From Spirochaetota bacterium (GTDB taxonomy: Bacteria > Spirochaetota > UBA4802 > JAFGDQ01), in assembly GCA_034190085.1 (NCBI GenBank), contig JAXHTS010000071.1:3032-67031 (forward strand): a stretch of 64,000 nucleotides of DNA. The letters run 5' to 3'. Position 1 is the first letter of the stretch. Every line of letters starts with the position of its first letter. The notes beneath the pieces are model-generated. The model searched no databases. It worked only from the letters and a program-made list of their open reading frames with translations, and was not told the origin of the DNA. Shown piece after piece: positions 3,104 through 58,814 of this stretch. The position numbers were made by a program, and so were the translations under genes.

Positions 3104-3667
3104 TCATTTGATTAAACTCATCACTGTATCACCGCTAAGGTTCGATATGCTGGAAATGGAGCTGTAATCTATTTCAGAAAGGGCAGTTTCAATATTCCTT
3201 CTAATAGCCTCAACCTCTGAATCAGCTAAATTTGAGGCAAGTATATTCTCCACCTCTATCTGCAACCTCTTTAGTTTGGAAATATCTAAATCTATTAGAT
3301 CATCTATTTCATTTATCTTTAGATTTAGATCGCCTTCCAAATCGCTATCCTCTACAAATTTATACAAAACCTTTTCATCTTCAAACCTTACACCATTTAG
3401 AATACCATTCTGATTGTCGAATCCTTCAGCCCTGTCCTCCTTTAGCTGAAAGATGCCATCCTTTATGATCTGATTGCGCGTGAGTGATGATTGGATTGCC
3501 TTCAACTCATCCTGCATTAAAATAAGCCTGGAATTTATCTTTTTTCTAATCTCTATAGAGTCTGACTTTAACTCCTTACCCTTTTTCCCGACAGATTGTT
3601 CATCCGTCTGTATCTTACTATTCATCCTCTTGGCAGTGCTAATGATCCCATCTACAGATACCTTCAT
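3104..3667 (-). CDS. Hypothetical coiled-coil protein (187 aa)
   Basis: ORF with charged heptad-like sequence and no recognisable catalytic motif. It lies 380 bp downstream of smc on the same strand. Confidence 0.35.
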   Translation of the reverse strand: MKVSVDGIISTAKRMNSKIQTDEQSVGKKGKELKSDSIEIRKKINSRLILMQDELKAIQSSLTRNQIIKDGIFQLKEDRAEGFDNQNGILNGVRFEDEKVLYKFVEDSDLEGDLNLKINEIDDLIDLDISKLKRLQIEVENILASNLADSEVEAIRRNIETALSEIDYSSISSISNLSGDTVMSLIK

Positions 3668-10216: not shown

Positions 10217-12301
10217 ATGAGTACTTCAAGTTTTATTCTACTACTATTAATTTTTATATCTGTAGGTTGGTTTGGATACAGGGTTACTCAACTCTTATGG
10301 GTGCTGCGCCTTGGTCAACCAGAGGATAGATTTGACAACATTGCCCAAAGGATAATGAATGTAGTAATATTTGTGCTTGGCCAAAGGCGTGTAGTTAAAG
10401 AGATATCCGGTTGGGGACATTTCTTTATATTTTGGGGTTTTGTTGTAATTCAAATCGGCGCGTTGGAACTTTTTGCTCAGGGTTTCTTTAGAGATTTCAA
10501 ATACGACAAAATAGCAGAAGAACTAATCGGAACTCCTATTATTGGAGAGATACTTTATCTAATTATAGATATAATCTGTTTCATCGTTCTCATTGCCTTA
10601 ATGATAGGGCTTGTACGAAGATATATGCTTAAACCTGTAAGACTGGAGGCAAAGGATCCACATGCGAAGGTTGATGCAACAGTAATAATCATATTAATAT
10701 CACTAATTATTCTTACACTCTTCGGTATTAACGGAGCTGAGCTCTCTGAGAAACTTGCAGAAGATAATTTCAGCGCAATTGACAGATTTAATATGATACA
10801 GATTGCGGGACTAAGGCTCGATCTATTCATGCCTATATCCTCATTGTTTTCATATTTATTCTCTGGGGCTAGCCATACAACAGCCGAATCTATTAGAGAC
10901 GTATTCTGGTGGATACATATCATTATAATATTAGGTTTTTTAGTTTATATTCCTTACTCAAAGCATCTACATCTTCTGGGCGCTATTCCTAATGTATTCT
11001 TTAAATCATCAAAACCAGTTGGAGAACTCGCTCAACTCGACATAGACGATGAAGAGGCTGAAACATTCGGAGCCTATAGAATTGAAGATTTTACATGGAA
11101 GCAGATGCTTGATCTTTATGCATGCACTGAATGCGGAAGATGCCAGGAGAACTGTCCCGCATATCTAACAGATAAACCCCTAAGCCCAAAAGAGCTTATT
11201 CATGATCTAAAGCTTAATCTATTAAAACGAGGATTGATGCTTATTGAAGATGAAAAAGAGAGGGAAACGGATGAGGCCAAAGAATATTTAGAAAAGCCAT
11301 TAGTGGATGGCATATTGGAAGAAGAGGCCATCTGGGCATGCACAAATTGTATGAATTGTCAGGAACATTGCCCGGTTTTCATTGAGCATGTACAGAAAAT
11401 TATTGATATAAGGAGATATCAGGTTCTGACAGAGGGGAAAATGGCCACAGAATTACAGACCACCTTTACAAATATGGAAAACAACTACAATCCCTACGGA
11501 TTCGCCTTTGCTGCTAGGGCTGATTGGGTTACTGAAGACCTAGGACTAAAAACACTCTCCGAAGATTCAGAAGTTGATTATCTATACTTTGTGGGTTGCG
11601 CTGCTTCATACGATAAAAGGAATCAGGATATTGCAAGGCTACTTGTGAAAATACTGAAAAAGGCTGGATTGAAGGTGGGGATTTTAGGTTCTGAAGAAGC
11701 ATGCTGCGGTGATTCAGCATTGAGAGCCGGGAATGAGTATCTCTTCCAGACTTTAGTTACACAGAATATAGAGACATTGAATTCATACAACGTTAAAAAA
11801 ATTATAACAACATGCCCACACGGATTTAATGTTATCAAGAATGAATATCCCAAGTATGGGGGTAACTATGAGGTATATCATCATATAGATTTACTGGCCA
11901 ATCTCATAGAGGAGGGCAAATTAACCTTAACCAATCCAGTAAACGAAAAGGTCGCTTATCATGATTCATGCTTCCTCGGTAGATATAACGAAATATATTT
12001 AGCGCCAAGAAAGATATTACAAGCTATACCCGGTATAGAATTAGTAGAGATGAGTAAAAATCATAATAAGAGCATATGTTGCGGGGCTGGCGGAAGCAGG
12101 ATGTGGATAGAAGAAAAAATTGGGAAAAGGATTAATCAATACCGAACCGAAGATTTCAAAAATTCAGGGGCTAACGTAGTAGCAACGGCTTGCCCATTCT
12201 GTATGACAATGCTTTCAGATGGAATAGTGGAGATCGGACTCGATGAGAATACATACTCTGCTTACGATATACTAGAGCTTGTAGACAAAGCTCTTGCCTA
12301 G
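10217..12301 (+). CDS. Membrane-bound Fe-S oxidoreductase: NarI/HdrE-like cytochrome-b membrane domain fused to an HdrD-like domain (2x[4Fe-4S] + 2xCCG); 694 aa
   Basis: About 6 N-terminal TM helices with conserved His (GWGHFF, WWIHIII, SKHLHLL). Two ferredoxin motifs: CTECGRCQENCP and CTNCMNCQEHCP. Two CCG-type Cys clusters: CCGDSA...TTCPHG and CCGAGG...ACPFC. Strong AAGGAG RBS. Confidence 0.75.
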   Translation: MSTSSFILLLLIFISVGWFGYRVTQLLWVLRLGQPEDRFDNIAQRIMNVVIFVLGQRRVVKEISGWGHFFIFWGFVVIQIGALELFAQGFFRDFKYDKIAEELIGTPIIGEILYLIIDIICFIVLIALMIGLVRRYMLKPVRLEAKDPHAKVDATVIIILISLIILTLFGINGAELSEKLAEDNFSAIDRFNMIQIAGLRLDLFMPISSLFSYLFSGASHTTAESIRDVFWWIHIIIILGFLVYIPYSKHLHLLGAIPNVFFKSSKPVGELAQLDIDDEEAETFGAYRIEDFTWKQMLDLYACTECGRCQENCPAYLTDKPLSPKELIHDLKLNLLKRGLMLIEDEKERETDEAKEYLEKPLVDGILEEEAIWACTNCMNCQEHCPVFIEHVQKIIDIRRYQVLTEGKMATELQTTFTNMENNYNPYGFAFAARADWVTEDLGLKTLSEDSEVDYLYFVGCAASYDKRNQDIARLLVKILKKAGLKVGILGSEEACCGDSALRAGNEYLFQTLVTQNIETLNSYNVKKIITTCPHGFNVIKNEYPKYGGNYEVYHHIDLLANLIEEGKLTLTNPVNEKVAYHDSCFLGRYNEIYLAPRKILQAIPGIELVEMSKNHNKSICCGAGGSRMWIEEKIGKRINQYRTEDFKNSGANVVATACPFCMTMLSDGIVEIGLDENTYSAYDILELVDKALA

Positions 12302-12388
12302 AATTGCTGGTTGTGAATACAAAGATAAGATTAAATAATATAAGCCAATATATAAATTTAACTTATAAAGGGGGAAGAATATCAATAA

Positions 12389-14506
12389 ATGAACATTCCT
12401 GAATTCTATGATATTCCTCCTACTGACATATCCCGAGAATTTTTTTTCAACATTGGCGGCACAAATGGTTTTATGAGATGGGGTATATACTTATACCTCA
12501 TCGTTGCTATTATCTATCTTTCTTTTACTCTCATTAAAAGGGTGAGAATATGGAGAAAAGGAAATGATGAGTTAAGGACTGATTTTCCCGAAAAGAGGAT
12601 TGTCGCTATATTTAAATATGTTTTCCTTCAAGTTAAGACCTTCAGGGAGGCATATGCAGGCACAATGCATGGATGTATCTTTTTTGGTTTTTTGGGATTG
12701 TTCATTGTAATGTCACTTATTGGTCTTCAACATTATTTCACGGATCTGCTTTTCAATACAAAATTCATCTACGGTAACATATATTTAATATGGTCACTTA
12801 TAGGAGATTTCTTCGGCTTGATTATCATTACTGGTATTGTAATGGCATTCAGGAGAAGATATATATTAAAACCCAATCGGCTAGACACAAAGCCAATTGA
12901 TACATTTACCCTGATCCTCATTTTACTCATAGTTATTACGGGTTTCTTTAGTGAAGCCATGAGGATAGCAATTAGCGGCTTCCCTGAATTTGAAGTTTGG
13001 TCTCCCTGCGGTTATATACTTTCCCTTGCCTTTTCATTTTCAGACACACCGACAATTGAAGTAGCTCATTATATTAACTGGTGGATTCACACAATATCGG
13101 CTTTTGGATTCATCGGATTATTGGCATCTGGGAAATTGGGACACATACTAATTTCTTCCCTAAATGTATATTATCAAAATTTAAATACTGAAAATCCAGA
13201 CACTAAATACACTTTCCATATTATCCACCCTGCAAAGGTTGAGGATGATGATACCATTGGCGTTTCCAGGGTAGAGGAGTTTACCTGGAAGCAGCTTATG
13301 GATTGTGACGCATGTATGAGATGCGGCAGATGTCAGGACAGGTGTCCTGCTTACATAACCGAGAAACCATTATCACCAAAAAATATGATAAATGATATTA
13401 AGAATAACATGGATATTAGAATACCAAAACTGATAACAGCAGAAGATCCGACAAAAGTTGAATCACAAGCTCTAATAGGTGGCTCTGTTTTAGAAGATGT
13501 GATTTGGTCCTGTACAAATTGTGCTGCATGTCAGGAGGTCTGTCCAGTTCAGATTGAACATATGAATAAGATAACAGACATGAGACGGCATCTGGTTCTC
13601 AAAGAGAGAAAGATTTCAAGAGAACTTCAGACAGCCTTTAATAATATAGAAGAAAATTCCAATCCCTTTGGAATTTCATTTGCATCAAGGGGTGACTGGA
13701 TTACTGAAGAACTGGGTATTAAAGCCCTTTCCAAGGATCCGGATGTTGACTTTCTATATTTTGTTGGATGCTCAGCATCTTATGATAAGAGGAACCAGAA
13801 GGTAGCCTCTGCGTTGGTGAAAACATTGAAGATGGCTGGTTACAAAATTGGCATTCTTGGGTCTGAAGAAGCATGCTGTGGGGATTCTGCTATGAGAACA
13901 GGGAATGAATATCTATTCCATACACTTGCAGCGCAGAATCTTGAAACCTTTAATAACTATGGAGTAAAAAAGATCATTACCACATGTCCTCATGGATACA
14001 ACATCCTAAAAAAAGAATATCCAGAATTTGCCAAGGTTGGCGTTGATTCATATAATAATCCCTTGGAGTGCAATTATGAGGTCTATCATCATACAGAGAT
14101 TATTGCTGATCTATTACGTAAGGGACAGATCAAAATAACTAATGCCCTAATCGGAAAGATTACATATCACGATTCCTGCTTTCTCGGAAGATATAATAAG
14201 ATATATAATTACCCAAGGGATATTATCAGGGCAATACCTGGCACCGAGTTCATTGAGATGAACTGGCATCATAAGACAAGTTTTTGCTGTGGTGCAGGAG
14301 GTGGACTCATGTGGCTTGATGAAAATTTGGGAAGCAGGATTAATCAATTCAGAACAAAAGATGCACATGATACAGGTGCTACGAAAATAGGGACAGCTTG
14401 TCCATTCTGCTTGACAAAGATAACTGATGGTATTACTGAGCTTGATATTCAGAATATGGAAACCTGTGATATAGTGGAACTTGTATATAACTTAATGGAA
14501 AAATAA
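12389..14506 (+). CDS. Paralogous membrane-bound HdrE::HdrD-like Fe-S oxidoreductase, 705 aa (same architecture as the upstream gene)
   Basis: Same domain order. WWIHTISAF and GKLGHIL His in the membrane domain. CDACMRCGRCQDRCP and CTNCAACQEVCP. CCGDSAM...TTCPHGYN and CCGAGGG...ACPFC. Roughly half the residues are shared with the first copy. Confidence 0.75.
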   Translation: MNIPEFYDIPPTDISREFFFNIGGTNGFMRWGIYLYLIVAIIYLSFTLIKRVRIWRKGNDELRTDFPEKRIVAIFKYVFLQVKTFREAYAGTMHGCIFFGFLGLFIVMSLIGLQHYFTDLLFNTKFIYGNIYLIWSLIGDFFGLIIITGIVMAFRRRYILKPNRLDTKPIDTFTLILILLIVITGFFSEAMRIAISGFPEFEVWSPCGYILSLAFSFSDTPTIEVAHYINWWIHTISAFGFIGLLASGKLGHILISSLNVYYQNLNTENPDTKYTFHIIHPAKVEDDDTIGVSRVEEFTWKQLMDCDACMRCGRCQDRCPAYITEKPLSPKNMINDIKNNMDIRIPKLITAEDPTKVESQALIGGSVLEDVIWSCTNCAACQEVCPVQIEHMNKITDMRRHLVLKERKISRELQTAFNNIEENSNPFGISFASRGDWITEELGIKALSKDPDVDFLYFVGCSASYDKRNQKVASALVKTLKMAGYKIGILGSEEACCGDSAMRTGNEYLFHTLAAQNLETFNNYGVKKIITTCPHGYNILKKEYPEFAKVGVDSYNNPLECNYEVYHHTEIIADLLRKGQIKITNALIGKITYHDSCFLGRYNKIYNYPRDIIRAIPGTEFIEMNWHHKTSFCCGAGGGLMWLDENLGSRINQFRTKDAHDTGATKIGTACPFCLTKITDGITELDIQNMETCDIVELVYNLMEK

Positions 14507-20498: not shown

Positions 20499-20867
20499 AT
20501 GAAAAAGCAAATTATGGTTTTATTCATGATCATTGCTATTTGCTCCATAATGACAGGTTGTATCTATCATCACATTAAATCGCCCTTTGTTTTAAATAAA
20601 GGCACAAATTATCAACTAACCACTGATGACTTCAAAATCATCGGTAGTGTAGAAGAAAAAGGCACAATAAGAAATATTCTCTTTCTTTTTCAATGGGGTG
20701 GTGACGGTTTTAAAATACTTGAAGAGAAAGCAAAGGAGATGGGAGGGGATGATATTATTAATTATACTTTTGACGTTGAAAACTTCGGGATATGGATTAT
20801 CTACAACTCCTTTACTTGGAATGCAAGGGGAACTGTTATTAAATACAGGGATAAAGCGGTAAAATAA
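20499..20867 (+). CDS. Small putative lipoprotein (122 aa)
   Basis: Signal peptide MKKQIMVLFMIIAICSIMTGC with a lipobox-like Cys. No other motif. Confidence 0.35.
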   Translation: MKKQIMVLFMIIAICSIMTGCIYHHIKSPFVLNKGTNYQLTTDDFKIIGSVEEKGTIRNILFLFQWGGDGFKILEEKAKEMGGDDIINYTFDVENFGIWIIYNSFTWNARGTVIKYRDKAVK

Positions 20868-40674: not shown

Positions 40675-41877
40675 CTATTTTTGTCTTATTCTTCCGTGAA
40701 ATTTTCTAGGAGCAACCATCTTCTCAATCCTATAAATAATAAATATAACTACACAGACAAGAAGTGCTAAAAGCCCCTTTTGGTAATATGGTAGGAATCG
40801 TGAACCCCTAGCTGATAGAATTCCATAAGCTCCGGATTCAATTTTGGTGGAGGGGTATACCTTCAGGATGTGATAACCTTCTAATTCAGCATCTATATTC
40901 AAATAGAATTCCCCTTCAGAGGGATCTAAAGAAATTATTAACCTATCATCCATATCAAAAAGATCAACCTGGAAGAGACCCGCCCTGGAGTCAAAATAGA
41001 TAGTGTTCTTTCCCCTTGATAAATAAATTCTGTAGGTCCTACTGCTCTCCCATCCCCTAACGGAATCGACAATTGAACTGCTGACATCCTGTTCCCATTT
41101 GTCAGCTATATCTATTAAGTTACTAAGTATATGCCTGTATGAAATTCTGTAGATCATATACCTCAACAACTCTCTATTGTATCCCTTATTATGATAACTG
41201 GTATACAGGGCCTCTCCCTCTCCCCTCTTAAGGATTGAGATGATTGGACCAAATTTAATACCCTTTGGTGTCTCAAAGGAGCCTTCAGCAACAACCTCCG
41301 CCTCTTTAACAGACTTAACTGCAATCCATCCCTGATGAAACATATAAAGGGCTAATTTTTCATTCCTGCAAAAGCAATATAACTCATCCTTTAGCTCAAG
41401 GGTTACCCTACCAGCCATTCCCATATTCGGAAAGTCATCGAAAAATTCAAAGGGTTTTAAAGAACCCTGAAGAAATTCATATGAATAACCAGAGAAATAC
41501 CCCACCCCCCCATCATGAATAAAAGATTTAATATTATTACAAATTTTTTCTCTATTTACTTCAGAAATGTCGTTTTTCAATAAAACTGCCTGAACCTTAG
41601 TCCCTCTTGAAAGAATATTCACGTTAGTCTCGATTGGCTTATACATCCCACAGGGAAAAAAAATTGCCCTATATTTATTATATATCTCCTCATTCTCAAG
41701 ATCATGACATTTTATCAAATGATATGGAATTCCATATCTTCTTAAAGCCCTCTCAACCCTATCAAATTTACCTTTAACTACCGCAATCCCTTTGATATCA
41801 TTTGTAGCAAAAAGTTTATTTAGGGGAAAAAATAACAGAAGGTGGGAAATAATAATTAAATAATGTAACAATTTCAC
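40675..41877 (-). CDS. Exported hypothetical protein with a C-terminal TM anchor and basic tail (400 aa)
   Basis: Signal peptide MKLLHYLIIISHLLLFFPLNKLFA. C-terminal hydrophobic helix GLLALLVCVVIFIIY followed by RIEKMVAPRKFHGRIRQK. An internal HDGGVGYFSGYS motif is faintly reminiscent of GATase1/ThuA-like folds; that is speculative. 6-bp gap to the upstream gene. Confidence 0.4.
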   Translation of the reverse strand: MKLLHYLIIISHLLLFFPLNKLFATNDIKGIAVVKGKFDRVERALRRYGIPYHLIKCHDLENEEIYNKYRAIFFPCGMYKPIETNVNILSRGTKVQAVLLKNDISEVNREKICNNIKSFIHDGGVGYFSGYSYEFLQGSLKPFEFFDDFPNMGMAGRVTLELKDELYCFCRNEKLALYMFHQGWIAVKSVKEAEVVAEGSFETPKGIKFGPIISILKRGEGEALYTSYHNKGYNRELLRYMIYRISYRHILSNLIDIADKWEQDVSSSIVDSVRGWESSRTYRIYLSRGKNTIYFDSRAGLFQVDLFDMDDRLIISLDPSEGEFYLNIDAELEGYHILKVYPSTKIESGAYGILSARGSRFLPYYQKGLLALLVCVVIFIIYRIEKMVAPRKFHGRIRQK

Positions 41878-41883
41878 GATCGG

Positions 41884-43827
41884 TTATATATTAATCTCCT
41901 TTATCTTTCTTAAAATCTCTCTCCTCTCATCAAGCCTTGATAAGATGCCTTCATCAATACATTCATTGGCAAGCTGATATGAAAAAGCGATTATGTGAAT
42001 AATGATGCCTCCCTTCAAAGAATTGCTAAGCACGCTCTTTCCTATAAGTTGATCCGAGAGCAGGCGCATATCCTTTAATCCTATTACACGACAATCAGAA
42101 AAAGGGATAGGTCGATCCCCCTCAACCCCTTCCCTCTCCGCTACTTTTACATCCATTGGCGTTCGTATAAGATCAGTATTTGATATTTCACTACCCTTCT
42201 CTTTCCATCGTCTGTGTATATCATATAACCTCTGCAACTCAGCTCCAATATTAAAGAAGAGATCCCCTATAAGCAATATTAACCTTTCAACCTGAGCCAT
42301 TGAAGGGATTTTCCCCTTTAGAATTTTTAAAACCTCTTCCCTGCCTACTGCCATCCTGGGATTATTGCTTCTAAATAAGTGCATCTCCCCTAAAAGTTCA
42401 GAAAGCCGCTTCATCTCATTTGAAAAATATTGAGCATTAAAGATCATTCCTTCATGATGATTCTGATCCTTATCCTCGAAAGTAATAATTGATCCATTAA
42501 AAAAGGGGACAAAGGAATTATTAAAAAAATTTATACATTCATCAAGAAAGGTAAGAAAATCCCTCTCATAAACAACACTATAATCCTTCTGTTTCCTATT
42601 ATCAATTTTCCACTGATCCTCAAAGGCCCGATAAAGAATATTCTGACCCTCAATTTTTAATTTAATGAGTGAATGAAGTTCATTATAGGGGATCAACTCC
42701 TCCTTAAGCTTTCCAATATGCCTTTCCTTTCTGGATTCCTCATCTTTACCAACTGTCTTTAAAAAATCAATACTATAATCCCAAACCTCACCATTTATTT
42801 GCGGTGCGGTAATATTAAAATAGTCTGTAATATCTTTGATTTCAACATCCTTCAGGAAGATAAGCGCCTCAATCAATATAATCAATAACTCAGATAAAGA
42901 GCTAATCCCATATCTTAAACGAAGCTGATTTGATAAAACACTCTCTGAATCAATTCTTGTGGGTAAAAAAGATCGTAAAATCATCATATACTCATAAATC
43001 TTCTTCTCCTTATCAAGATTTCTCTTCTCCTTTTCCCTCTTCAAACTCTCAGAATCAGTTTGATCAATCTTCTCCTTCAATAAATCATCTGACAATCTCA
43101 ATTTATTCTCAACAAGCAGAATAATCTGTTCCTTTGTCTCGATATCTATCGTTAAAAAAGAAAAAAAATGTACGATATAACTCTTTAACTCCAATTCAAA
43201 TGAGCGCCTATCCATCCACTTCAATTCATCAAAACTGTACTTGACAATAGGGGTTTCCATCATCCATCTTCTAAATATCCGCAAATAATTAAAATGTGTA
43301 GCATCCTCGATTGATTTGTCCTTGAGAATCTCCATTAAAATAGCAGGCAATCTGGATAATATCATTTCCTGATAAGATATAATCCACCGAATTATCTTTA
43401 ACAATCTTCTGTTGGGGATTAATCTCCTCTTTATCCCAATACCCAATCTATTATTTGTACGAATAAGATACCTCTTCCTAAATATTTTGAGTTTTTTATA
43501 CCTCCAATAAATATCCTTGATAAATTGATTAGTATCTAAGGGATCAGATTTATTCACGTCAGAAGAAGCAGTATCCTGTCTATATTCACCCCTTGGGGAT
43601 TTAGTATCCATTCTATCACTACCCTTACTACTCTTTGATTTATCATCACAAGACTTAATAAGATCTACAATGGCGCTATATCTCTCACCCGAGGGTATCG
43701 TCGTGTTCTTGATTAAAGACCGTACTATCTCCATTTTATCAGATGGGATATCCTTACTCGCAAGAAGAGCCTTTGCCCTCCTCTCTATCTTCTCATTTTC
43801 CTTATCACTTAACATATTTATATCCAT
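41884..43827 (-). CDS. Hypothetical cytoplasmic protein (647 aa), no recognisable domain
   Basis: Long ORF, very basic/helical. It is the first gene of an apparent four-gene minus-strand unit ending in parA-parB. Confidence 0.4.
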   Translation of the reverse strand: MDINMLSDKENEKIERRAKALLASKDIPSDKMEIVRSLIKNTTIPSGERYSAIVDLIKSCDDKSKSSKGSDRMDTKSPRGEYRQDTASSDVNKSDPLDTNQFIKDIYWRYKKLKIFRKRYLIRTNNRLGIGIKRRLIPNRRLLKIIRWIISYQEMILSRLPAILMEILKDKSIEDATHFNYLRIFRRWMMETPIVKYSFDELKWMDRRSFELELKSYIVHFFSFLTIDIETKEQIILLVENKLRLSDDLLKEKIDQTDSESLKREKEKRNLDKEKKIYEYMMILRSFLPTRIDSESVLSNQLRLRYGISSLSELLIILIEALIFLKDVEIKDITDYFNITAPQINGEVWDYSIDFLKTVGKDEESRKERHIGKLKEELIPYNELHSLIKLKIEGQNILYRAFEDQWKIDNRKQKDYSVVYERDFLTFLDECINFFNNSFVPFFNGSIITFEDKDQNHHEGMIFNAQYFSNEMKRLSELLGEMHLFRSNNPRMAVGREEVLKILKGKIPSMAQVERLILLIGDLFFNIGAELQRLYDIHRRWKEKGSEISNTDLIRTPMDVKVAEREGVEGDRPIPFSDCRVIGLKDMRLLSDQLIGKSVLSNSLKGGIIIHIIAFSYQLANECIDEGILSRLDERREILRKIKEINI

Positions 43828-50569: not shown

Positions 50570-53500
50570 TCAAAATAGTAGGGTGAGACTGAATCCAATC
50601 TCATAGGAGCGTATCTCCCTATTTATACCATTAGTGTCTCTATTCCTGAATCTCTCCAGTGCCCAACGCGCTGAAAGCCCCCCTTGAATATTCTTATGAA
50701 GATCCATTGTCAGTTTCCCGATTATCAGATGCTGGTCGTATGGCTCAGGAGAAACAGTATCCGAATAATCATATCTATTGAGTAAAAGAGAATATTCCAA
50801 ACTTATGATTGGCAATGATTCAAGTTCATATAAATTGGAGAATAGATTATATATCAATTGAACATCGGTTTCATATAAAATTGAAAAATTATATCCCCGC
50901 TCCCTCTCCTTGAATGAATCTATTATTTGCATATTAGTCACATAGATATCATCACTTTTCGACCTCTTTGATTCGTCTGTAGAAATATACTCCCTTCTTT
51001 TTCTTAGCCTGTAATCCATTCCAATGTTTAAGCTCAGACTTGTTCTGTCCCATTTAAATATTATTCCCATGTTTGGGGAATGGGTATCCTCTTCAATATT
51101 TGAAGTTATGATCATATTCCTACTAAAATCATACCCGGCATTCACACTTGCTGAATGATATGGCATCCCTATTACATTGGGCCTAAAAAACCAAAAATTG
51201 AAAATCTGCATAAGATCAATAATTATGTTTAGGTTATCGCTCACTGTGACTACCTGCTGAGGGGTTCCGTATATATTTTGTCGTTCGCTAACCTGATTTA
51301 AGCCCATTCCAAAATTCAGAACAATCCACCGGAAATCAAGAGTAGAGCTTACACCAATGTTATCAATCAATCTCAGATTGTTATTATAGTCTATGGCTGA
51401 TGATCCATTGGTATAATTTATCTCCCTGTTAAACTTTCTGTATGCATAATCTCTACCATTTGCAAAGTTTCCTCGCCCCATAAAAGGATACCATGGGGGG
51501 AAGTCAAAAGGATTCATACAAATGTCAGCAAATCCATTGTATACCCTCCTTATACCATAATCCTCATCAAGGGAGGATGTCCCCTCCCCCTCGTATGGAA
51601 CATCTATCTCTTGAAAGAATATAGATCGTGAATAACTAATATTTAAATTTCGAAAAAACTCCATCCCTTTTATCTTGTTGAAAGCGAAGGGCAAATCGAG
51701 TCGATTAGAGACTAGCGTGTTTGCATCTTTGGATCTAATATATTTATCTGATATTATCCTCTCACTATCATCGTAATCACTAAAATTATCCTCAATGTAG
51801 TTGAAGACCAATCTCAACTCTGGTGAGATCAGGGTTAGCTTCCTTAAACCAAAACTTAGTCCTATCTCTTTATCCCTTCCAACGAATTTAAAGTCCTTAT
51901 TGTATACAAAGGGGAGATGAAATCCACCATCAACCTCCGACAAAATCTCCATATCATTCTCATCCATCCTCCCCTTCAATTCAACGATCTCATGTGTGCT
52001 ACTATTAACAGATGGTTTGAAGAATAAAAATGAGTTTTGATAATCTGCGCGAATTTGAGCCCCACCCTTTTGCCTCTTCTCCACCTCGTTGAGTGAGATG
52101 AACTGCTCAAGCTCTCCCAGCCCCTTCTCAACAGAATTTCGTCCTATGTCTTCCTCCTGAAAAAATGCATCCATAACAATTGTAGTTGTTATGTTTCCCC
52201 AGAGTTTACTATTGATCCTATTTTGTAAAACCAAGGTTGGTGTGTAAACCTGGTTCTGGGTGTGTGCGTTGATCCTGAAATCCGATATATATCTCTCTTT
52301 CAGATTATCATATATATCCTGTTTGTATATCAACTTTATACTGGGGAAGATGTATTTATCAGATACAAAATCAGACTCAAATAAGAGACTCTTCTTCTCT
52401 GTCTCTCCTCTACTCTCTTCATGCACCTCTTCATTGAAGCTATCAGTTATTGAATCCTCAACTGAAAAATTTAATTGAACCCTCCAGTTTGGCAGAATGT
52501 TAATAGATGAAAAGACCTCATTGCTCTTCTCCCTAATATCATCCATTGTCTTCCCTATGGTGTTGAAGTTGTACCCATGCCCCTTTCCTATATACTTGAT
52601 AATAAAATCTGATAACACCGGTGTGCCGATATCGGATATATACAATGGTCTCTTAAAGGAAATCTTCCCCTCATACCAGTAAGCGCTATCCCGCAGCATT
52701 TCTGGTTCACTGACATACATGTCGTTTACCCAGAATTTTCCGCTATTTACGCCACTAATCCCAATTTCAATAAATGAGATCCTTTTCATATCTGGATTAC
52801 CGGCAATATTACTAATCTCGACATCACCATTAGATCCGCTCTTAAGCTTCAATCTTATCTCCCTCCATATGCCAATATAATCCATTGAAAATCCATACTC
52901 ATAATAATCATCCTCTGATGATCCGATCTTTAGGGTTATTGAATCACCAATTGAAAACTCCCTGAAGTTAAACCATATATTCATTGTCTTGTAAAATCTG
53001 ATGTCCATCGGACGTAAGAACTTTCTGGAAGCAGAACCCGTTGAATTGTCATACTCAATCTGGAGCGCTGTCTCCCTCTCTTTTGATAATTCTACATCAT
53101 TTTTATCCCCATATAGAGATTCATAATTATTATTAACCAAAGATATATATGACTCAGCCCTATAATCGGCATCATTTAAAGTATCAACCTTAGTAATACG
53201 AAGAGATCCACTGTCGTCCCTCCAACTCGAAGATACAAATCGAATGCTGTTAATATAAATAGTACCCTTTACCGCGCTATTCCTCAAAAGATAGAGCCTT
53301 AATGACTCCACCTGTTTAAGGATTTCGATCTGACTGTCATCGATTCTATCTCTATCCAGATAAATTCTAATATTTTCCCAATCAGTATTGGATCCATCAA
53401 TGGATATTGCAGAGGATGGAGTTGTGAATACCCCTGGGAGGGTGATTACATGTTCATCTTTATCAAGTATCCCATTCCTATTGAGGTCTTCACTATTGAG

Positions 53501-56215
53501 CGCGCCATCTCCCATGGTTATCTGACTAAGCTTAGGGCCTGTGCCAATTATCGTTTGAACATTTCCATCAAATTGATACCCGATATCCTCCTCTATCCCA
53601 GCGGAGGGATCATAATCGAGAAATCCATTATTATTGACATCCTCAGTATCGAGCAGATCATCATCATCGGAATCCTCGTTTATCCTTCCGATGTCAATGC
53701 AGAAATCAACTTCACCACTAACACCCTCTGCGCGATACCATATCTCTACATATTGCAATCCTGAAAAATCAACAGCCATAGCAGAGGGCATTGGGGTTAC
53801 AATTGGAATGCAATCACCAGTAGAGAAATCGAAATTCAAAACCAGGGACCTCTGCGTTTCAAGCGGTTGGATTGAATCAGGTATATGTCCAATCGCTACA
53901 TTATAAGGACCTGGTTTTATTGAATATGAGACGCTATAGGGGATAAAGTCAATCCCCCTTAGTGTATCAGGATGAAATGGATCTCTATAGTAGTAATAAT
54001 ACAAAATTCCCCTATTGTCTTGAGCTAAACCGATAGGCATCGATGAAAGCCACCAGTCCTTCTCGGATAGAGAGAGGGGTACAATCTCATCAGTTGCCTC
54101 CATGCTATCGATTAGTGCTTTGCCAAAGGTATTGATTTTTTTGTAGCTTCTAGCATATTCCGCATAACAATCTATTTCCACTGGAACTGATTTGGGCTTT
54201 ATGCCAGTAATATTATTTATGAATCTCTTTAATCTTGCTTCTCCAAGATGTAGTGACGTGTCTCCCTCAAAAACAAGGGTCTGTTCTGGCTCACTTCCGA
54301 TATTAGGAATTACATCATCCCCGGATTCCCTTGTATAAAGGAGAGTACCCCCAACGTCAAGACTCCTATTTACCCTATAATCACCACGTATTCCGCCACT
54401 AAAGGACTTAGACTGTGAATTAAAGGGTAGATACTCGTATTTTACCTCGATCTCTGTCTTTGGGCCAATTAGCGGATTATTGGGATCAATGAATTCTAAA
54501 AAACCTGAAGTATAATCGAGTGAGTATAATGAGGGTGCTATTTCTAAGCCGTTTATTCGTATCCGAACACTCTCTGGAATTATATTAAAATGCTTTAACT
54601 GAAAGCTTCTGGCCTCCCTGTAATAATCAATTCTAATCTTATAAATAGATGAAAGATAAGCATTCGTCTGTTGCTTTTCAGAATAGATCACATCTGCATC
54701 ATTCATATCCAAGAGCTGCCGGAAGGGCTCCCTAAGGTGGAACTCTACTATACCATTGGTATAATCCACAGAATATTTCCCCAACTTAGCAACATCACTC
54801 TTTGGCAAAAGTGTATTTTCTCTATAAAAAAGTATTCTGAAATTATCCTCCAGAAGCTGTCTGTCCCCAATATTATAGAATGATCGTATCTCATATATAT
54901 CACGATTGATCCTGCCATCACCATTGACATCATCACCATGAGTCTCATCTAGGGAGTATCCATATTTGATGAATACAAAGTTCTTGCCTGAAAACATCCC
55001 ACCAGGGTGATTTGAACTACCTGGAGATAGAGCGCATGGATCTGCGGTAGATCGGTCTTTAAGCCAATATACTGCAAAAATATTCGCATTCTCTGGAATA
55101 TTTTTAATAAAAGTAATTAAGCCAGTGGCATAATTTATCTTATAATCTATGCCGGAAATCAATTTTGAATAATAACAATTATCTAAGGTGAGTCTAATGG
55201 CGTTATAATTATTCTGCGGATTCTTATCATCAATGTATATTTCAAAACCAGATGGTTCAATATTTACAGGATAGAGAGTATAAATTTCTGGATTTGACGG
55301 TGATGACGTGACCACGACAGAATTTAATACCTCTCCATCAGAAGGGATAGATATCCTATTATCATACCTAATAAATGGTTCGATCTGATAGTATATGTTT
55401 CTTATGTATTGATATTCTGATAGCCTGATATAACTCGGAGAAGCATTGCCACGAAATATCTCAATCTCTGTCTCACCCCTTGATACGCTGCCAAAGGCCC
55501 TGATTCTCAAGTTCTCCTTCTTTAAGGCTACATCAATCCCAATACCCTTCATTGAGGTTTCATCAAAAGCAACATACTTTGACTTCTCAAGATTTATATC
55601 AATCTCACCGGCATTTATCTCCCTAATAACCTCTTCCTCACGAATAGCCCGATATCGCATCACATAGTGATTGTCGCTCTTATCACTATCATGGTCAATA
55701 TAAACGGTAAGGCGTCTACCGATATCGCCTTCCATATGAAGTTGCAGTTCATGCTCTGCATTGAATCCATCCTTAATAACCCTTGAAACTGGTTTGTCCT
55801 CATCATATCTACGGTAACTATCCTTTGTAAATTTCGATTTGCCATATAGCAGATCAATCTTAAGCGAACCATAAGAGTTGATATTCACCTCACCCCTCTT
55901 CTCAATGCTGAATCCCTCATCAAAAAGGTTTTCTGTAATAGGTTTATATTTTATTGAGGTGACATATTTCTCCCAATCCCCCTCAAGATATACAAATGGA
56001 TGAGTGATGTTCTCGTTTATTTCATTAATAAATATATTCTCTTTTTGAAGAGAGATGCCTACTTCTCCTCCTTCTGAGTTTGACTCAATATATCTTAGCA
56101 GGATGTCTTTGAAACCTCTTTCCACATAAGTTACTTTTGAAAAGGCAACAGCCAATAAGCATGTTGTCCCCAAATATATTAATAACTTAATACAAAGGGA
56201 CACCCTTATTATCAT
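50570..56215 (-). CDS. Giant secreted outer-membrane protein (1881 aa) with C-terminal beta-barrel signature; SprA-like candidate
   Basis: N-terminal signal peptide. Two D-x-N-x-N-G-x-x-D Ca-binding-type loops (DVNNNGFLDYD, DLNRNGILDKD). Extensive beta-rich Y/F/N/S composition. Terminal ...IGFSLTLLF with C-terminal Phe. Confidence 0.5.
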   Translation of the reverse strand: MIIRVSLCIKLLIYLGTTCLLAVAFSKVTYVERGFKDILLRYIESNSEGGEVGISLQKENIFINEINENITHPFVYLEGDWEKYVTSIKYKPITENLFDEGFSIEKRGEVNINSYGSLKIDLLYGKSKFTKDSYRRYDEDKPVSRVIKDGFNAEHELQLHMEGDIGRRLTVYIDHDSDKSDNHYVMRYRAIREEEVIREINAGEIDINLEKSKYVAFDETSMKGIGIDVALKKENLRIRAFGSVSRGETEIEIFRGNASPSYIRLSEYQYIRNIYYQIEPFIRYDNRISIPSDGEVLNSVVVTSSPSNPEIYTLYPVNIEPSGFEIYIDDKNPQNNYNAIRLTLDNCYYSKLISGIDYKINYATGLITFIKNIPENANIFAVYWLKDRSTADPCALSPGSSNHPGGMFSGKNFVFIKYGYSLDETHGDDVNGDGRINRDIYEIRSFYNIGDRQLLEDNFRILFYRENTLLPKSDVAKLGKYSVDYTNGIVEFHLREPFRQLLDMNDADVIYSEKQQTNAYLSSIYKIRIDYYREARSFQLKHFNIIPESVRIRINGLEIAPSLYSLDYTSGFLEFIDPNNPLIGPKTEIEVKYEYLPFNSQSKSFSGGIRGDYRVNRSLDVGGTLLYTRESGDDVIPNIGSEPEQTLVFEGDTSLHLGEARLKRFINNITGIKPKSVPVEIDCYAEYARSYKKINTFGKALIDSMEATDEIVPLSLSEKDWWLSSMPIGLAQDNRGILYYYYYRDPFHPDTLRGIDFIPYSVSYSIKPGPYNVAIGHIPDSIQPLETQRSLVLNFDFSTGDCIPIVTPMPSAMAVDFSGLQYVEIWYRAEGVSGEVDFCIDIGRINEDSDDDDLLDTEDVNNNGFLDYDPSAGIEEDIGYQFDGNVQTIIGTGPKLSQITMGDGALNSEDLNRNGILDKDEHVITLPGVFTTPSSAISIDGSNTDWENIRIYLDRDRIDDSQIEILKQVESLRLYLLRNSAVKGTIYINSIRFVSSSWRDDSGSLRITKVDTLNDADYRAESYISLVNNNYESLYGDKNDVELSKERETALQIEYDNSTGSASRKFLRPMDIRFYKTMNIWFNFREFSIGDSITLKIGSSEDDYYEYGFSMDYIGIWREIRLKLKSGSNGDVEISNIAGNPDMKRISFIEIGISGVNSGKFWVNDMYVSEPEMLRDSAYWYEGKISFKRPLYISDIGTPVLSDFIIKYIGKGHGYNFNTIGKTMDDIREKSNEVFSSINILPNWRVQLNFSVEDSITDSFNEEVHEESRGETEKKSLLFESDFVSDKYIFPSIKLIYKQDIYDNLKERYISDFRINAHTQNQVYTPTLVLQNRINSKLWGNITTTIVMDAFFQEEDIGRNSVEKGLGELEQFISLNEVEKRQKGGAQIRADYQNSFLFFKPSVNSSTHEIVELKGRMDENDMEILSEVDGGFHLPFVYNKDFKFVGRDKEIGLSFGLRKLTLISPELRLVFNYIEDNFSDYDDSERIISDKYIRSKDANTLVSNRLDLPFAFNKIKGMEFFRNLNISYSRSIFFQEIDVPYEGEGTSSLDEDYGIRRVYNGFADICMNPFDFPPWYPFMGRGNFANGRDYAYRKFNREINYTNGSSAIDYNNNLRLIDNIGVSSTLDFRWIVLNFGMGLNQVSERQNIYGTPQQVVTVSDNLNIIIDLMQIFNFWFFRPNVIGMPYHSASVNAGYDFSRNMIITSNIEEDTHSPNMGIIFKWDRTSLSLNIGMDYRLRKRREYISTDESKRSKSDDIYVTNMQIIDSFKERERGYNFSILYETDVQLIYNLFSNLYELESLPIISLEYSLLLNRYDYSDTVSPEPYDQHLIIGKLTMDLHKNIQGGLSARWALERFRNRDTNGINREIRSYEIGFSLTLLF

Positions 56216-56292
56216 TGACTATTTCTTTATGAGGAATGAAATGATTTTAGAAGAAATGAAAGAACAAATCAGGAATATTATATCAATATTTT

Positions 56293-57288
56293 TTACCAGA
56301 CTCTGCTCATATAGGGATAAGGATTTGATGCGGCATGACCGACCCTAATCTCATAGTGACAATGATTACCGGTTGCTGCTCCGGTTTGTCCCACATAGGC
56401 TATTATTGTGCCCTTCTTCACTCGATCTCCCTTTTTCACTATTATCTTAGAACAGTGGCCATACATCGACTGAAATCCATACTTATGTTTTATTCTTACT
56501 AAATACCCGTAACCGCTTCCCCATCCAGCTGAAACCACCACACCTGGCGCTGTTGCTCTTATCGCTGTGCCTGGTGGAGCGGCAATATCTATCCCAGTAT
56601 GAAAGTCTCTTCCAAAACCAAAAGGGGATCGTCGCCATCCGAATAGTGAAGTAATATGCCCCCTGTTTGGAACAATTGACGGCATATCACCTATTACCTT
56701 GCTTCTAACATCAACAAAGGTTTTAATAGTTTTTATGATATTTGTTGTGCTGACAATATCTTTTTGTAAACCTGCTAACGTAAATATTTCTTCAGGTAGT
56801 ATATTATTAAGGCCCTCAAGTGTATTCAAATCACCCGCATCAGATAAAACACTATTCCATACCTTACCAATATCAATATCACCAACAGTCATTTTATATA
56901 AGTCGCTCACTTCTGGTTTAATATTCTTTATCATCTCATCTATTTTGTTTGTATGCTTTTCAAATCTCAACAAGTGAGATCTTATATCCATGTAATCGGA
57001 CAACAATCTCTGTTCTTCACGCTCGATAGCAGCATTTTTTATGATTGCATAGGTTGAAGTTGATATAACGATCACAAATAGTATCAAGAAAAAGGATAAT
57101 GTAAATTTTGATATTTGAAAATTAAATATTCTCTTCTGGTTATGTGGTATAAACATAACGGTCATCTTTTCATGACCCTTTTCCAAATAACTATCCCATC
57201 TCCTATTGAGTCTCCTCTTATATACATAGTAAGACTCTGAAACCCATTTCTTAATTCTATTTCGATACTTCTTTATCATAAATCTCAT
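56293..57288 (-). CDS. Membrane-anchored M23/LytM-family metallopeptidase (EnvC/NlpD-like)
   Basis: N-terminal TM and a coiled-coil segment. C-terminal M23 domain with HTGIDIAAPPGTAIRA ... GHCSKI ... HCHYE. Sits 77 bp upstream of the giant gene on the same strand. Confidence 0.8.
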   Translation of the reverse strand: MRFMIKKYRNRIKKWVSESYYVYKRRLNRRWDSYLEKGHEKMTVMFIPHNQKRIFNFQISKFTLSFFLILFVIVISTSTYAIIKNAAIEREEQRLLSDYMDIRSHLLRFEKHTNKIDEMIKNIKPEVSDLYKMTVGDIDIGKVWNSVLSDAGDLNTLEGLNNILPEEIFTLAGLQKDIVSTTNIIKTIKTFVDVRSKVIGDMPSIVPNRGHITSLFGWRRSPFGFGRDFHTGIDIAAPPGTAIRATAPGVVVSAGWGSGYGYLVRIKHKYGFQSMYGHCSKIIVKKGDRVKKGTIIAYVGQTGAATGNHCHYEIRVGHAASNPYPYMSRVW

Positions 57289-58052
57289 CTTGCCTTCCTA
57301 TTCCAACTAAATCGTATGACTTTTTCTATTTGATATGCGTTTACTCAATCATAACCCCAATATATGATAATGGATAATCATTCTAAAATAGAATCAAAGA
57401 GGTATGCAGATTGATGACGCTCCAGCAAAAAATCAACTCCAATAATATTTACATTGATAAAAGCTAAATACTAACAATATAGTCGGATATAGAAAGCATA
57501 CTTCAATTAAAAGTAGTTTGTATGAATGTTGATTGTACAATACTTTATATTATCATTACACTAATATCATATCTTCCAAGCTTTATACCCTAAACATAAA
57601 TGGAATCAATGATTCAAATTAACCTTTTCGGTGTATTGCGATAAGACTTTTACGCAATTGCCTCATTAGTATTTCCACAACATACTCGTGACAAATACTA
57701 TGTCATGGAAATCCATTGACGAAGTCCAATATAAAGGACTTATACCATAGCCTTTATCAAAATAAACAACCGCCTATTTTAGATAATATTATTAATTTAA
57801 GCAACCATTTTTTATGGGAATTAAATTTATTATGAATTATGATATTCAAATATAGGATAAATATTATTTTCACGACAATAATAATGATAATAACAGAATG
57901 TGCCAGAGGTTTTTTTAAAGTGTTTAAAAATATAATAAAACTTGTTGAAATATCACTATATTCTAATAATTCTTGCATTCAATTATCATCTTTGCTTCAA
58001 AAAATTGCCCTGAATAATAATAATCGTTCAAAATAACAGGAGGACAACCTAT

Positions 58053-58814
58053 ATGAATTCTTCAGATTCTGTTAACATAGAGAAAACCCTATCTTCTGCA
58101 ATCGATAAAGCGCTTCATCAGGCCAACAATCTGCTTCATATGATCAAGGACTATAAAAAAATAAAAATAAAACAGATTCTTGATCTGGAATACAATCACT
58201 ATTCAATAGATGCTAATGGAGTCGTAAGCATATCATCACGGTGGCCTATTGTTAGGTTGCATGAATTTATTTCTGATGATCTCGGCATCGTACAGGGTGC
58301 GGAAGATATATTGATATATGAAAGGTATATTCAACATGAGGGATTTCCATTAACAGAGTCCAGGTTTCTGACCAGTCTGCGATACAACCCAGAGAATTGT
58401 TGGCATGTTCGCGAGGATATTCAAAATGAATTTCCACATTATGTGGTGCATGGTTCGGATATTCTTATGGTGCAGGCTGGGAGTTTTGCTGGAGCTTCAG
58501 CAATATTGCCAATATTTCATGAAGATGTGATTCTGGGCAATGGATGCATAAGAATCAGGGTAAAGGCTGAAATTTGCGAGGTATTTTATTTGCTAAATGT
58601 CCTTCACTACTATTATTCACAAGGAATAATACAGATTTCACATAAGGGAGCCCGAGACAAAATCACTATAGAATCGTTATTAAACATTCAATTACCGAAT
58701 CCTCCGATGGAGGAGCAGAAGCGTATCGCTGACACACTTCTGAAGCTGTCTGGGGCCATGGTTGCACAAACAACTTACAGCGATGAGATGCTGAATCTTA
58801 AAGGTATGATTTAG
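58053..58814 (+). CDS. Type I restriction-modification specificity subunit (HsdS)-like protein, single target-recognition domain (half-S), orphan
   Basis: TRD-opening motif SRWPIVRLHEFI, GSDILMVQAGSFAGASAIL and the conserved inter-domain motif LPNPPMEEQKRIADTL (cf. LPPLxEQxxI of HsdS). Strong AGGAGG RBS. No hsdM or hsdR in the window. Confidence 0.55.
   Translation: MNSSDSVNIEKTLSSAIDKALHQANNLLHMIKDYKKIKIKQILDLEYNHYSIDANGVVSISSRWPIVRLHEFISDDLGIVQGAEDILIYERYIQHEGFPLTESRFLTSLRYNPENCWHVREDIQNEFPHYVVHGSDILMVQAGSFAGASAILPIFHEDVILGNGCIRIRVKAEICEVFYLLNVLHYYYSQGIIQISHKGARDKITIESLLNIQLPNPPMEEQKRIADTLLKLSGAMVAQTTYSDEMLNLKGMI

Follow-up and report, generated by a model that had tools for sequence, protein, structure and literature searches.

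The minus strand of the 64-kb window, as we term the whole stretch of DNA analysed, carries a giant gene directly preceded by a peptidase gene. Both ORFs, when re-read, are as the first-pass annotation had described them, 1881 aa in the case of the giant protein, with a gap of 77 bp to the co-oriented M23 gene upstream. Positions in the window are as follows:

50570..56215 (-), gene for the giant SprA/Sov-superfamily outer-membrane protein, an ORF of 1881 aa
56138..56215 (-), signal peptide, aa 1-26, with a predicted SPase I site between AFS and K (sequence, family alignment and modelled N-terminal helix)
54026..54661 (-), stretch closest to SprA in sequence, aa 519-730 (TIGR04189 positions 577-790), also well aligned in hhalign
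53615..53641 (-), first DxNxNGxxD Ca-binding-type loop, aa 859-867, DVNNNGFLD (sequence)
53462..53488 (-), second DxNxNGxxD loop, aa 910-918, DLNRNGILD (sequence)
52754..53377 (-), approximate limits of an internal CBM-like beta-sandwich domain, aa ~947-1154
50573..52741 (-), C-terminal aa ~1159-1881, with 26 long beta-strands in a row that make up most of the predicted transmembrane barrel wall
50573..50605 (-), beta-signal at the C-terminus, ...YEIGFSLTLLF, with terminal Phe (sequence, alignment)
56216..56292 (-), 77-bp spacer from the M23 gene to the giant gene, with no terminator-like hairpin
56293..57288 (-), gene for the M23 (LytM-type) metallopeptidase, 331 aa and membrane-anchored (PF01551, 3.3e-33)
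57037..57105 (-), aa ~62-84 of the M23 protein, predicted to be its only transmembrane anchor, after a basic cytoplasmic tail (sequence)
56320..56604 (-), catalytic domain of the M23 protein, aa 229-323, containing H230-x3-D234 and H309-x-H311 (PF01551; motif reading)

The giant protein is 100% identical to SVZ03_14090 of a Spirochaetota MAG. A sequence database search returned 143 close homologues of 1850-1930 aa, and the family is annotated as "hypothetical" in the databases. The NCBI start for the giant gene is 30 codons downstream, resulting in an 1851-aa product; a second, independent gene call gives 1881 aa. The annotation is corrected here on both counts, the label 'hypothetical protein' and a start codon that deletes the signal peptide. 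An Rfam scan of the 64-kb window gave no match.

The signal peptide reads MIIRVSLCIKLLIYLGTTCLLAVAFS followed by K, and M1 is invariant and the A24-x-S26 site conserved among 38 homologues. At the C-terminus hydrophobic residues alternate and F1881 is invariant, also among 38 homologues, so that the protein has both the Sec signal peptide and the C-terminal beta-signal with an aromatic end expected of a BAM substrate. In the family alignment E858, D859, N861 and N863 of the first loop are invariant and D867 almost so; in the second loop E909, D910 and G915 are invariant, with N914, L917 and D918 almost invariant. The motif DxNxNGxxD occurs only twice in the six frames of the window, both times in the giant protein, and the second loop (LNSEDLNRNG) aligns in hhalign with the similarly acidic, Ca-loop-type TEDLDGD motif of SprA. 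The signal peptide, the two loops and the ...SLTLLF ending with its terminal Phe, all noted on first reading, are borne out by conservation within the family.

The M23 protein scores 114 bits against PF01551 (gathering score 28.7), and the zinc-ligand motifs, HxxxD and HxH, are kept in 57-61 of 61 orthologues. With its catalytic residues intact, the protein is, as read from its sequence, a membrane-anchored peptidoglycan endopeptidase. The EnvC-like coiled coil attributed to it in the first-pass annotation did not survive comparison with the EnvC profile, PRK11637, which matches the LytM domain only (aa 205-329), its 67.5 bits falling short of the 270-bit cutoff. EnvC and NlpD, degenerate LytM amidase activators that have the LytM fold in common with the M23 protein, are missing the metal ligands; the M23 protein keeps these and is therefore not EnvC-like. 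Its anchor and LytM domain are also separated by only ~120 residues, and nothing in it matches the coiled-coil part of the EnvC profile. The EnvC-like reading is accordingly rejected, on a score below cutoff and on intact active-site residues. Enzymes of the MepM, ShyA, Pgp3 and DipM type have, as does the M23 protein, an M23 domain with HxxxD/HxH ligands, one N-terminal transmembrane segment and a periplasmic catalytic domain. Unlike these, the M23 protein is without a LysM or OapA domain and is encoded at a conserved place before the SprA-like gene, and it scores far under the cutoffs of all NCBIfam equivalogs.

An M23 gene lies directly upstream, on the same strand, at 61-65 of ~74 informative loci (~85% of clade loci), with a median spacer of 68 nt at 57 related loci. 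The lack of a terminator-like hairpin in the 77-bp spacer makes co-transcription plausible, and the two genes are probably co-transcribed in most of the clade; a promoter scan did no better than on shuffled sequence. The first-pass annotation had remarked that no such adjacency has been described for the T9SS, which is right: the adjacency is clade-specific. As the M23 gene (61 loci) is no better kept than two unrelated neighbours, a convergent DHH gene (59 loci) and a SpoIIE gene (51 loci), and as one subclade and the sister families lack it, the case for a functional link with the peptidase is weak.

SprA/Sov (TIGR04189, PF14349; PDB 6H3I, 6H3J, 8GL6, 8GL8) is the known T9SS outer-membrane translocon of F. 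johnsoniae and Porphyromonas gingivalis. The giant protein had been assigned to this family on size and character, with the two profiles suggested as the check. TIGR04189 does match, at 100.1 bits (E 5.4e-29) with the best stretch limited to aa 519-730, and so falls below the curated equivalog cutoff of 200 bits; PF14349 (SprA_N) has no match in the giant protein, nor does any Pfam family at E<=1. A Pfam scan extended to three homologues returned nothing useful, and PF14349 is absent from the precomputed annotation of all close homologues, some of which list PF27067. Sequence searches of the PDB, with the single sequence and with a 38-sequence profile, gave no match at E<=10, SprA included. 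SprA was reached only through fold comparison and profile-profile comparison.

In Foldseek searches with the two halves of the protein, SprA is the best match of the N half at 3.8e-34 (next best 1e-4) and of the C half at 2.8e-26 (next best 8e-6), and the strong matches of both independently modelled halves are four F. johnsoniae SprA chains only. The predicted fold therefore matches solved SprA above any other structure. With hhalign, the family profile aligned to a profile of five proteins of the SprA family, of which three carry an SprA/Sov annotation at source, with a probability of 100% and an E-value of 6.4e-45 over 1057 columns. A greedier setting, which gave one equal-scoring alignment, extended this collinearly, with query columns 98-1856 aligned to template columns 206-2335 of 2409. 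The giant-protein family profile also matches, at 8.5e-80, a family with candidate division FCPU426 members (P0202) that scores 265 bits against TIGR04189, above cutoff, and that matches annotated Chlorobiales SprA at 1e-24 and Bacteroidetes SprA at 1e-10. Intermediate sequences of this kind link the giant-protein family to SprA. By these profile comparisons, the giant protein is a divergent SprA/Sov homologue at the superfamily level, full-length and collinear, and with its relatives constitutes a distinct subfamily under the curated SprA thresholds. The original assignment thus stands as superfamily homology; as an ordinary SprA it does not.

AlphaFold models were made of two overlapping halves, one of which is aa 682-1881 (pLDDT 83.5). 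In the C-half model the last ~720 aa, beginning at aa ~1159, contain 26 long strands at high pLDDT, in agreement with the beta-rich character noted from the sequence. About 10 further candidates for long strands lie at aa 110-266 and 604-694. Summed over the two half-models the strands fit a total of ~36, although closure of the barrel, its exact strand number, a cap and a lateral opening are not visible in a protein modelled in halves. SprA is a closed 36-strand barrel with an extracellular cap and a lateral opening (PMC10994853).

SprA is, and the giant protein is predicted to be, a giant single-chain outer-membrane beta-barrel with beta-sandwich inserts and a Sec signal peptide, but in structure alignments they are only ~10-13% identical, and the giant protein, at 1881 aa, has ~500 residues less than SprA (~2400). 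There are ~70 poorly conserved mature residues before the first aligned column, versus ~200 in SprA, the N-terminal extension of which folds inside SkpA in F. johnsoniae (PMC10994853). PorV, Plug, PPI, SprE or GldKLMN partners are not known for the giant protein. The preceding gene is usually an M23 peptidase gene rather than the ruvA that precedes Bacteroidota sprA, and the host belongs to the Spirochaetota, unlike the Bacteroidota hosts of SprA.

Relatives of the giant protein are present in 126 species-representative genomes. All 80 that were retrieved come from Spirochaetota MAGs, none of the homologues found is from a cultured organism, and the 64-kb window itself contains Leptospira-type families. 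The subfamily is conserved across an uncultured, Leptospira-related Spirochaetota lineage, and it looks vertically inherited across the whole lineage, not recently transferred. The giant gene behaves as a conserved housekeeping gene of this lineage. The gene had also been put forward as a phylogenetic marker of the FCB superphylum; as the host is a Spirochaetota MAG, that reading fails, and neither the host nor any of the 80 retrieved relatives is placed in the Bacteroidota or FCB superphylum. Related families are also present in MAGs labelled Elusimicrobia, FCPU426 and Hydrogenedentota. SprA-like proteins from FCPU426, Elusimicrobia and other uncultured groups (P0202, P0275, P0313, P0319, P0321) are closer to the giant protein than is Bacteroidota SprA, matching its family profile at E 1e-70 to 1e-80. 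They belong to the same superfamily, are annotated as 'hypothetical' and have a housekeeping genomic setting, but they are longer (2000-2200 aa), have fn3/CBM inserts, adjoin lptF-lptG with no M23 neighbour and, in several cases, have PF14349 and exceed the TIGR04189 cutoff. A sister family (the P0137 group, ~2000 aa, from Leptospiraceae/Spirochaetia MAGs) is, like the giant protein, from Spirochaetota, with a profile match of 979 bits, and is likewise below the TIGR04189 cutoff, at 168 bits. Its neighbourhood differs, with a STAS-domain gene upstream, zapA downstream and no M23 gene. In the literature on SprA or T9SS in spirochaetes, Leptospira and Elusimicrobia, we found no SprA homologue reported from spirochaetes; one preprint describes a PorV/PorQ-family annotation in Brachyspira for a protein that is FadL-like in structure.

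The window, ~12 kb of sequence beyond it and +/-8 kb around 80 related loci yielded no T9SS genes; among these regions no PorV, GldK/L/M/N (PorK/L/M/N) or CTD-cargo gene was seen. T9SS genes are normally scattered in the genome, and this absence therefore says little. Bacteroidota sprA also lies outside T9SS clusters, as in the ruvA-sprA arrangement of one locus (L086) and the lack of T9SS neighbours at another (L082), which likewise makes the absence from the window uninformative. At least two of the 53 signal-peptide ORFs in the flanks were required for a match to count, and no T9SS-specific family, including PorV and TIGR04183/TIGR04131, was matched in this small, syntenic sample, in which single-member matches are mostly unlisted. 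A faint Por_Secre_tail match lies 4 kb from an FCPU426 homologue. The lptF-lptG pair divergently adjoins the SprA-like gene in 4 of 4 non-FCB, non-spirochaete relatives examined, two of which are closely related, and in Spirochaetota the neighbours of SprA-like genes encode M23 peptidase, an MlaD-domain protein, LpxB, MreBCD-PBP2-RodA, PBP1 and ZapA. Two ORFs of 647 and 400 aa (40675-43827) were considered as partners and rejected, as the similar-sized pair that flanks the giant gene in a subclade consists of aconitase genes unrelated to these ORFs.

We consider it fairly probable that the giant protein is an SprA-type translocon homologue, a Sec-exported, BAM-inserted, protein-conducting outer-membrane channel of a distinct Spirochaetota subfamily. 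It would be exported by Sec by virtue of the N-terminal signal peptide, and be inserted into the outer membrane by BAM through the C-terminal beta-signal ending in Phe. There it would most likely form a capped barrel of very large size, filled with water, that lets folded periplasmic proteins pass to the cell surface. The M23 endopeptidase might open the cell wall locally, or be a mere housekeeping neighbour.

It seems rather unlikely that the protein instead serves as translocon in a complete canonical T9SS, with a GldK/L/M/N-type motor/ring, a PorV-type carrier, SprE/PorW and CTD-tagged cargo encoded elsewhere in the genome and perhaps taken up from FCB bacteria. The full-length homology to SprA, the similarly isolated sprA genes of Bacteroidota (L086, L082) and the faint Por_Secre_tail match near the FCPU426 homologue are consistent with such a system, but the protein scores far under the equivalog cutoff for SprA and has little of the N-terminal extension, the family appears to have been inherited vertically across the whole lineage, and, as a weak test, the signal-peptide ORFs of the flanks revealed no T9SS-specific family. 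Published surveys and reviews also argue against it: among 2,484 genomes surveyed, no clade but Bacteroidetes was found to have a T9SS (PMC4793230), and reviews describe T9SS as Bacteroidota- or FCB-specific (PMC7463736, PMC12398890, PMC10994853).

The lptF-lptG adjacency in the four non-FCB, non-spirochaete relatives, the envelope or housekeeping neighbours in Spirochaetota and the housekeeping-like conservation of the giant gene would all fit an SprA-shaped barrel that helps to build or maintain the envelope, for example by bringing lipoproteins, LPS-linked material or further components of the envelope to the surface, and that does not secrete folded cargo. This we regard as improbable: the characterised superfamily members are, to our knowledge, all protein translocons, the lptFG synteny comes from four loci only, two of them closely related, and such a role has no mechanistic precedent. 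An unrelated adhesin, S-layer or porin-type protein, with only a generic beta-barrel similarity to SprA, is effectively refuted and was rejected. Generic barrels align over <=400 residues compared to 797 for SprA, in Foldseek SprA stands apart from all others by at least ~20 orders of magnitude, with the N half and the C half alike, and the collinear hhalign columns, more than 1000 in number, include non-barrel domains.

Published work regards SprA/Sov as the translocon that marks a secretion system specific to Bacteroidota/FCB. The locus described here adds an unannotated SprA-superfamily protein that is conserved across a whole Spirochaetota lineage and has related families in other non-FCB candidate phyla, and the SprA-superfamily genes outside FCB all lie in housekeeping/envelope neighbourhoods. 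One tentative possibility is that SprA-type barrels are an older and wider outer-membrane export device than the FCB T9SS, working in Spirochaetota, Elusimicrobia, FCPU426 and comparable lineages without the GldKLMN motor, where they may provide a housekeeping route for surface proteins/lipoproteins, coupled in this lineage to a dedicated M23 cell-wall hydrolase. If true, the giant protein would be a candidate for the missing pathway by which spirochaetes export to the cell surface. Either T9SS-like secretion is far more widespread than thought, or the barrel had an older or different role and was later recruited by the T9SS.

Two adjacent minus-strand ORFs, 77 bp apart, were recovered exactly as the first-pass annotation has them.

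50570..56215, (-) strand: giant-protein gene, ORF of 1881 aa
56293..57288, (-) strand: M23 peptidase gene, ORF of 331 aa

The giant protein matches 'hypothetical protein SVZ03_14090' from a Spirochaetota MAG at 100% identity, but the NCBI model of the latter is 1851 aa, starts 30 codons later and so loses the signal peptide; the stretch cut off by this start choice is 56126-56215 of the window. Both the alignment of the family and an independent gene prediction back the 1881-aa form. Three features read at first pass were all found: a typical signal peptide, MIIRVSLCIKLLIYLGTTCLLAVAFS, with predicted cleavage before K, and with M1 and the A-x-S site conserved in an alignment of 38 homologues; two DxNxNGxxD loops (aa 859-867 and 910-918), whose key residues do not vary within the family and which are the only matches to this pattern in a six-frame scan of the whole window; and a C-terminus, ...YEIGFSLTLLF, with alternating hydrophobic residues and a terminal Phe invariant in the family alignment. 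As signal peptide, loops and C-terminal Phe are conserved in homologues, the ORF is real rather than a chance occurrence.

The curated models for SprA/Sov, the outer-membrane translocon of type IX secretion (T9SS), gave a mixed answer. TIGR04189 matched the giant protein (5.4e-29), but scored 100 bits where the cutoff is 200 and aligned to little beyond aa 519-730, and PF14349 had no match, the Pfam search being empty; PDB sequence searches also returned zero matches. The protein was modelled as two overlapping halves, each on a 38-sequence alignment (aa 1-1000, pLDDT 73; aa 682-1881, pLDDT 83.5), and in Foldseek comparisons with the PDB the four F. johnsoniae SprA chains took ranks 1-4 for both the N half (3.8e-34, runner-up 1e-4) and the C half (2.8e-26, runner-up 8e-6). 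A family profile (aa 101-1250), searched against 1.84 billion representatives, identified 1564 relatives at E<=1e-3, of which 610 reach E<=1e-30. These 1564 cluster representatives (50% identity) constitute a SprA-like superfamily of ~1500-2300 aa proteins, nearly all unlabelled; the few labels among matches P0133-P0264 are Leptospiraceae, Spirochaetia, Hydrogenedentota, Elusimicrobia, FCPU426 and 'bacterium'. Annotated SprA sequences were reached through one intermediate representative, P0202, which has PF14349, belongs to a family that includes candidate division FCPU426 members, and has among its matches a Chlorobiales 'T9SS outer membrane translocon Sov/SprA' (1e-24) and a Bacteroidetes SprA (1e-10). 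With TIGR04189, P0202 and two other relatives, P0180 and P0137, score 265, 210 and 168 bits, respectively (cutoff 200). Alignment by hhalign of the window family with five SprA-family sequences, three of them source-annotated SprA/Sov, gave a probability of 100% (E 6.4e-45, 1057 columns), and a greedier setting extended this collinearly to query columns 98-1856 and template columns 206-2335 of 2409, with the second acidic loop, LNSEDLNRNGILD, aligned to a TEDLDGD-type motif of SprA. As structure and profile-profile comparison agree, the mixed result from the curated models notwithstanding, the question is settled: the giant protein is a genuine SprA/Sov-superfamily member over its whole length. 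The SprA-like assignment made at first pass thus stands at the superfamily level but not by the curated equivalog thresholds, and the group is a distinct, shorter subfamily that fails those tests. SprA/Sov is a known kind of protein; what is new is a subfamily with neither description nor annotation, outside the curated family limits.

The domain map was drawn from the two half-models, and its boundaries are approximate.

aa 1-26: signal peptide
aa 27-108: low-confidence, poorly conserved segment (models)
aa 110-266: first long strands and the most conserved motifs, DHDS and REINAGEID (models)
aa ~270-600: inserted domains (models)
aa 604-694: four long strands (models)
aa ~700-1154: mixed domains, including two Ca-type loops (models)
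aa ~947-1154: CBM-like beta-sandwich (matches to CBM11/22/30)
aa ~1159-1881: 26 long strands (models)

Counted over the separately modelled halves, these 26 strands plus ~10 N-terminal candidate strands would be compatible with the 36 of the SprA barrel (PMC10994853). Relative to SprA, the giant protein lacks ~110 residues N-terminally, ~230 mid-protein and ~190 in the C-terminal third (hhalign). The N-terminus of F. johnsoniae SprA is folded within the SkpA chamber (PMC10994853), whereas the corresponding segment of the giant protein is short and unconserved.

In the protein encoded upstream, a basic cytoplasmic tail is followed by a single transmembrane segment (aa ~62-84), a ~120-aa linker and an M23 domain (PF01551, 3e-33). 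As its zinc ligands, HxxxD (H230, D234) and HxH (H309, H311), are intact and kept in orthologues, it is predicted to be an active LytM-type endopeptidase. Its description as EnvC-like was not sustained: the EnvC profile covers the LytM domain only and scores far under cutoff, which, with the intact ligands, rules out an EnvC-like degenerate activator. An M23 orthologue lies immediately upstream on the same strand at 61-65 of ~74 informative loci (80 related loci), separated from the giant gene by a median of 68 nt, and the 77-bp spacer has no terminator-like hairpin; co-transcription with the giant gene is plausible. Convergent, functionally unrelated downstream genes are, however, nearly as constant (DHH at 59 loci, SpoIIE at 51). 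One subclade of related loci (L005, L007, L009, L010, L013, L020, L030, L031) has the giant gene without the M23 partner, next to aconitase, IMPDH, hom/thrC or fliD genes; in a sister family within Spirochaetota the neighbours are a STAS gene (upstream) and zapA (downstream); and there is no M23 neighbour at the FCPU426, Elusimicrobia, Chlorobiales and Bacteroidetes homologue loci. A functional link is therefore viewed with caution, and the pairing is a clade-specific feature of gene order. The interval upstream of the M23 gene (57289-58814) comprises ~760 bp of non-coding, AT-rich sequence and a lone HsdS-type ORF (type I restriction specificity, 253 aa), with hsdM/hsdR absent nearby; in 27 related loci this place is instead taken by an MlaD-domain gene and radA, both on the M23 strand.

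The 120 homologues listed all measure 1850-1930 aa, share 42-57% identity with the giant protein, derive from Spirochaetota/Leptospirales MAGs and are 'hypothetical' or without product name. A one-genome-per-species scan found 126 relatives, and all 80 retrieved are from Spirochaetota MAGs. Small proteins encoded at 3104-3667 and 20499-20867 match Leptospira-defined families (LIC10415, the LIC11742 lipoprotein, DUF6567), which supports a Leptospira-related host. Elsewhere the window carries ordinary chromosomal genes (purE, guaA, smpB, parAB, metG, feoAB, H+-PPase, sucCD, others). Beside parAB, two adjoining (-) ORFs of 400 and 647 aa (40675-43827) have no Pfam or NCBIfam match, and two tandem HdrD-like paralogues of ~700 aa each, with Fer4 and CCG domains (10217-14506), are followed by the H+-pyrophosphatase gene. 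The host is outside the FCB superphylum, and the proposal that the giant protein marks FCB ancestry falls with its Spirochaetota source.

That the giant protein is an unrelated adhesin or barrel is effectively excluded by the Foldseek matches of both halves to SprA and by hhalign. We consider it reasonably likely that it is a SprA-type barrel acting as a protein-conducting channel: it would cross the inner membrane by Sec, be placed in the outer membrane by BAM, and there conduct proteins through that membrane. That it instead belongs to a full canonical T9SS whose other genes lie elsewhere in the genome seems unlikely. There are no T9SS genes in the 64-kb window, in ~12 kb of extra flank or within +/-8 kb of 80 relatives, and, in a weak test, none of the T9SS sorting-domain families was matched by at least two of 53 flank signal-peptide ORFs; these negatives carry little weight, as even Bacteroidota have their T9SS genes dispersed, exemplified by the ruvA-sprA arrangement at Bacteroidota locus L086. 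Among 2,484 genomes surveyed, only those of Bacteroidetes had T9SS (PMC4793230), reviews term it Bacteroidota- or FCB-specific (PMC7463736, PMC12398890, PMC10994853), and we found no literature report of a spirochaete SprA homologue. One of the 53 ORFs is a cyclophilin-type peptidyl-prolyl isomerase (NCBIfam PRK10903, 1.5e-76). A PPI subunit belongs to the F. johnsoniae translocon (PMC10994853), but with a single member only this is probably coincidence.

A SprA-shaped barrel that serves envelope biogenesis, and not cargo secretion, appears quite improbable. It is favoured by envelope-related neighbours of the giant gene in Spirochaetota and by lptF-lptG, which divergently adjoins the SprA-like gene in each of the four relatives from outside FCB and the spirochaetes whose gene context was examined (FCPU426, an Elusimicrobia MAG and two further lineages).

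L081:5908-16225, SprA-like gene with lptF-lptG
L085:7707-15619, SprA-like gene with lptF-lptG
L087:5276-14630, SprA-like gene with lptF-lptG
L088:926-10208, SprA-like gene with lptF-lptG

At L087 and L088, a Peptidase_M28 gene overlaps the 3' end of the SprA-like gene.

This SprA-type subfamily sits in a phylum from which T9SS is not known, with a clade-specific M23 partner. Though less likely than not, SprA-type barrels may be an older, widespread export device that, in Spirochaetota and further phyla outside FCB, does without GldKLMN.
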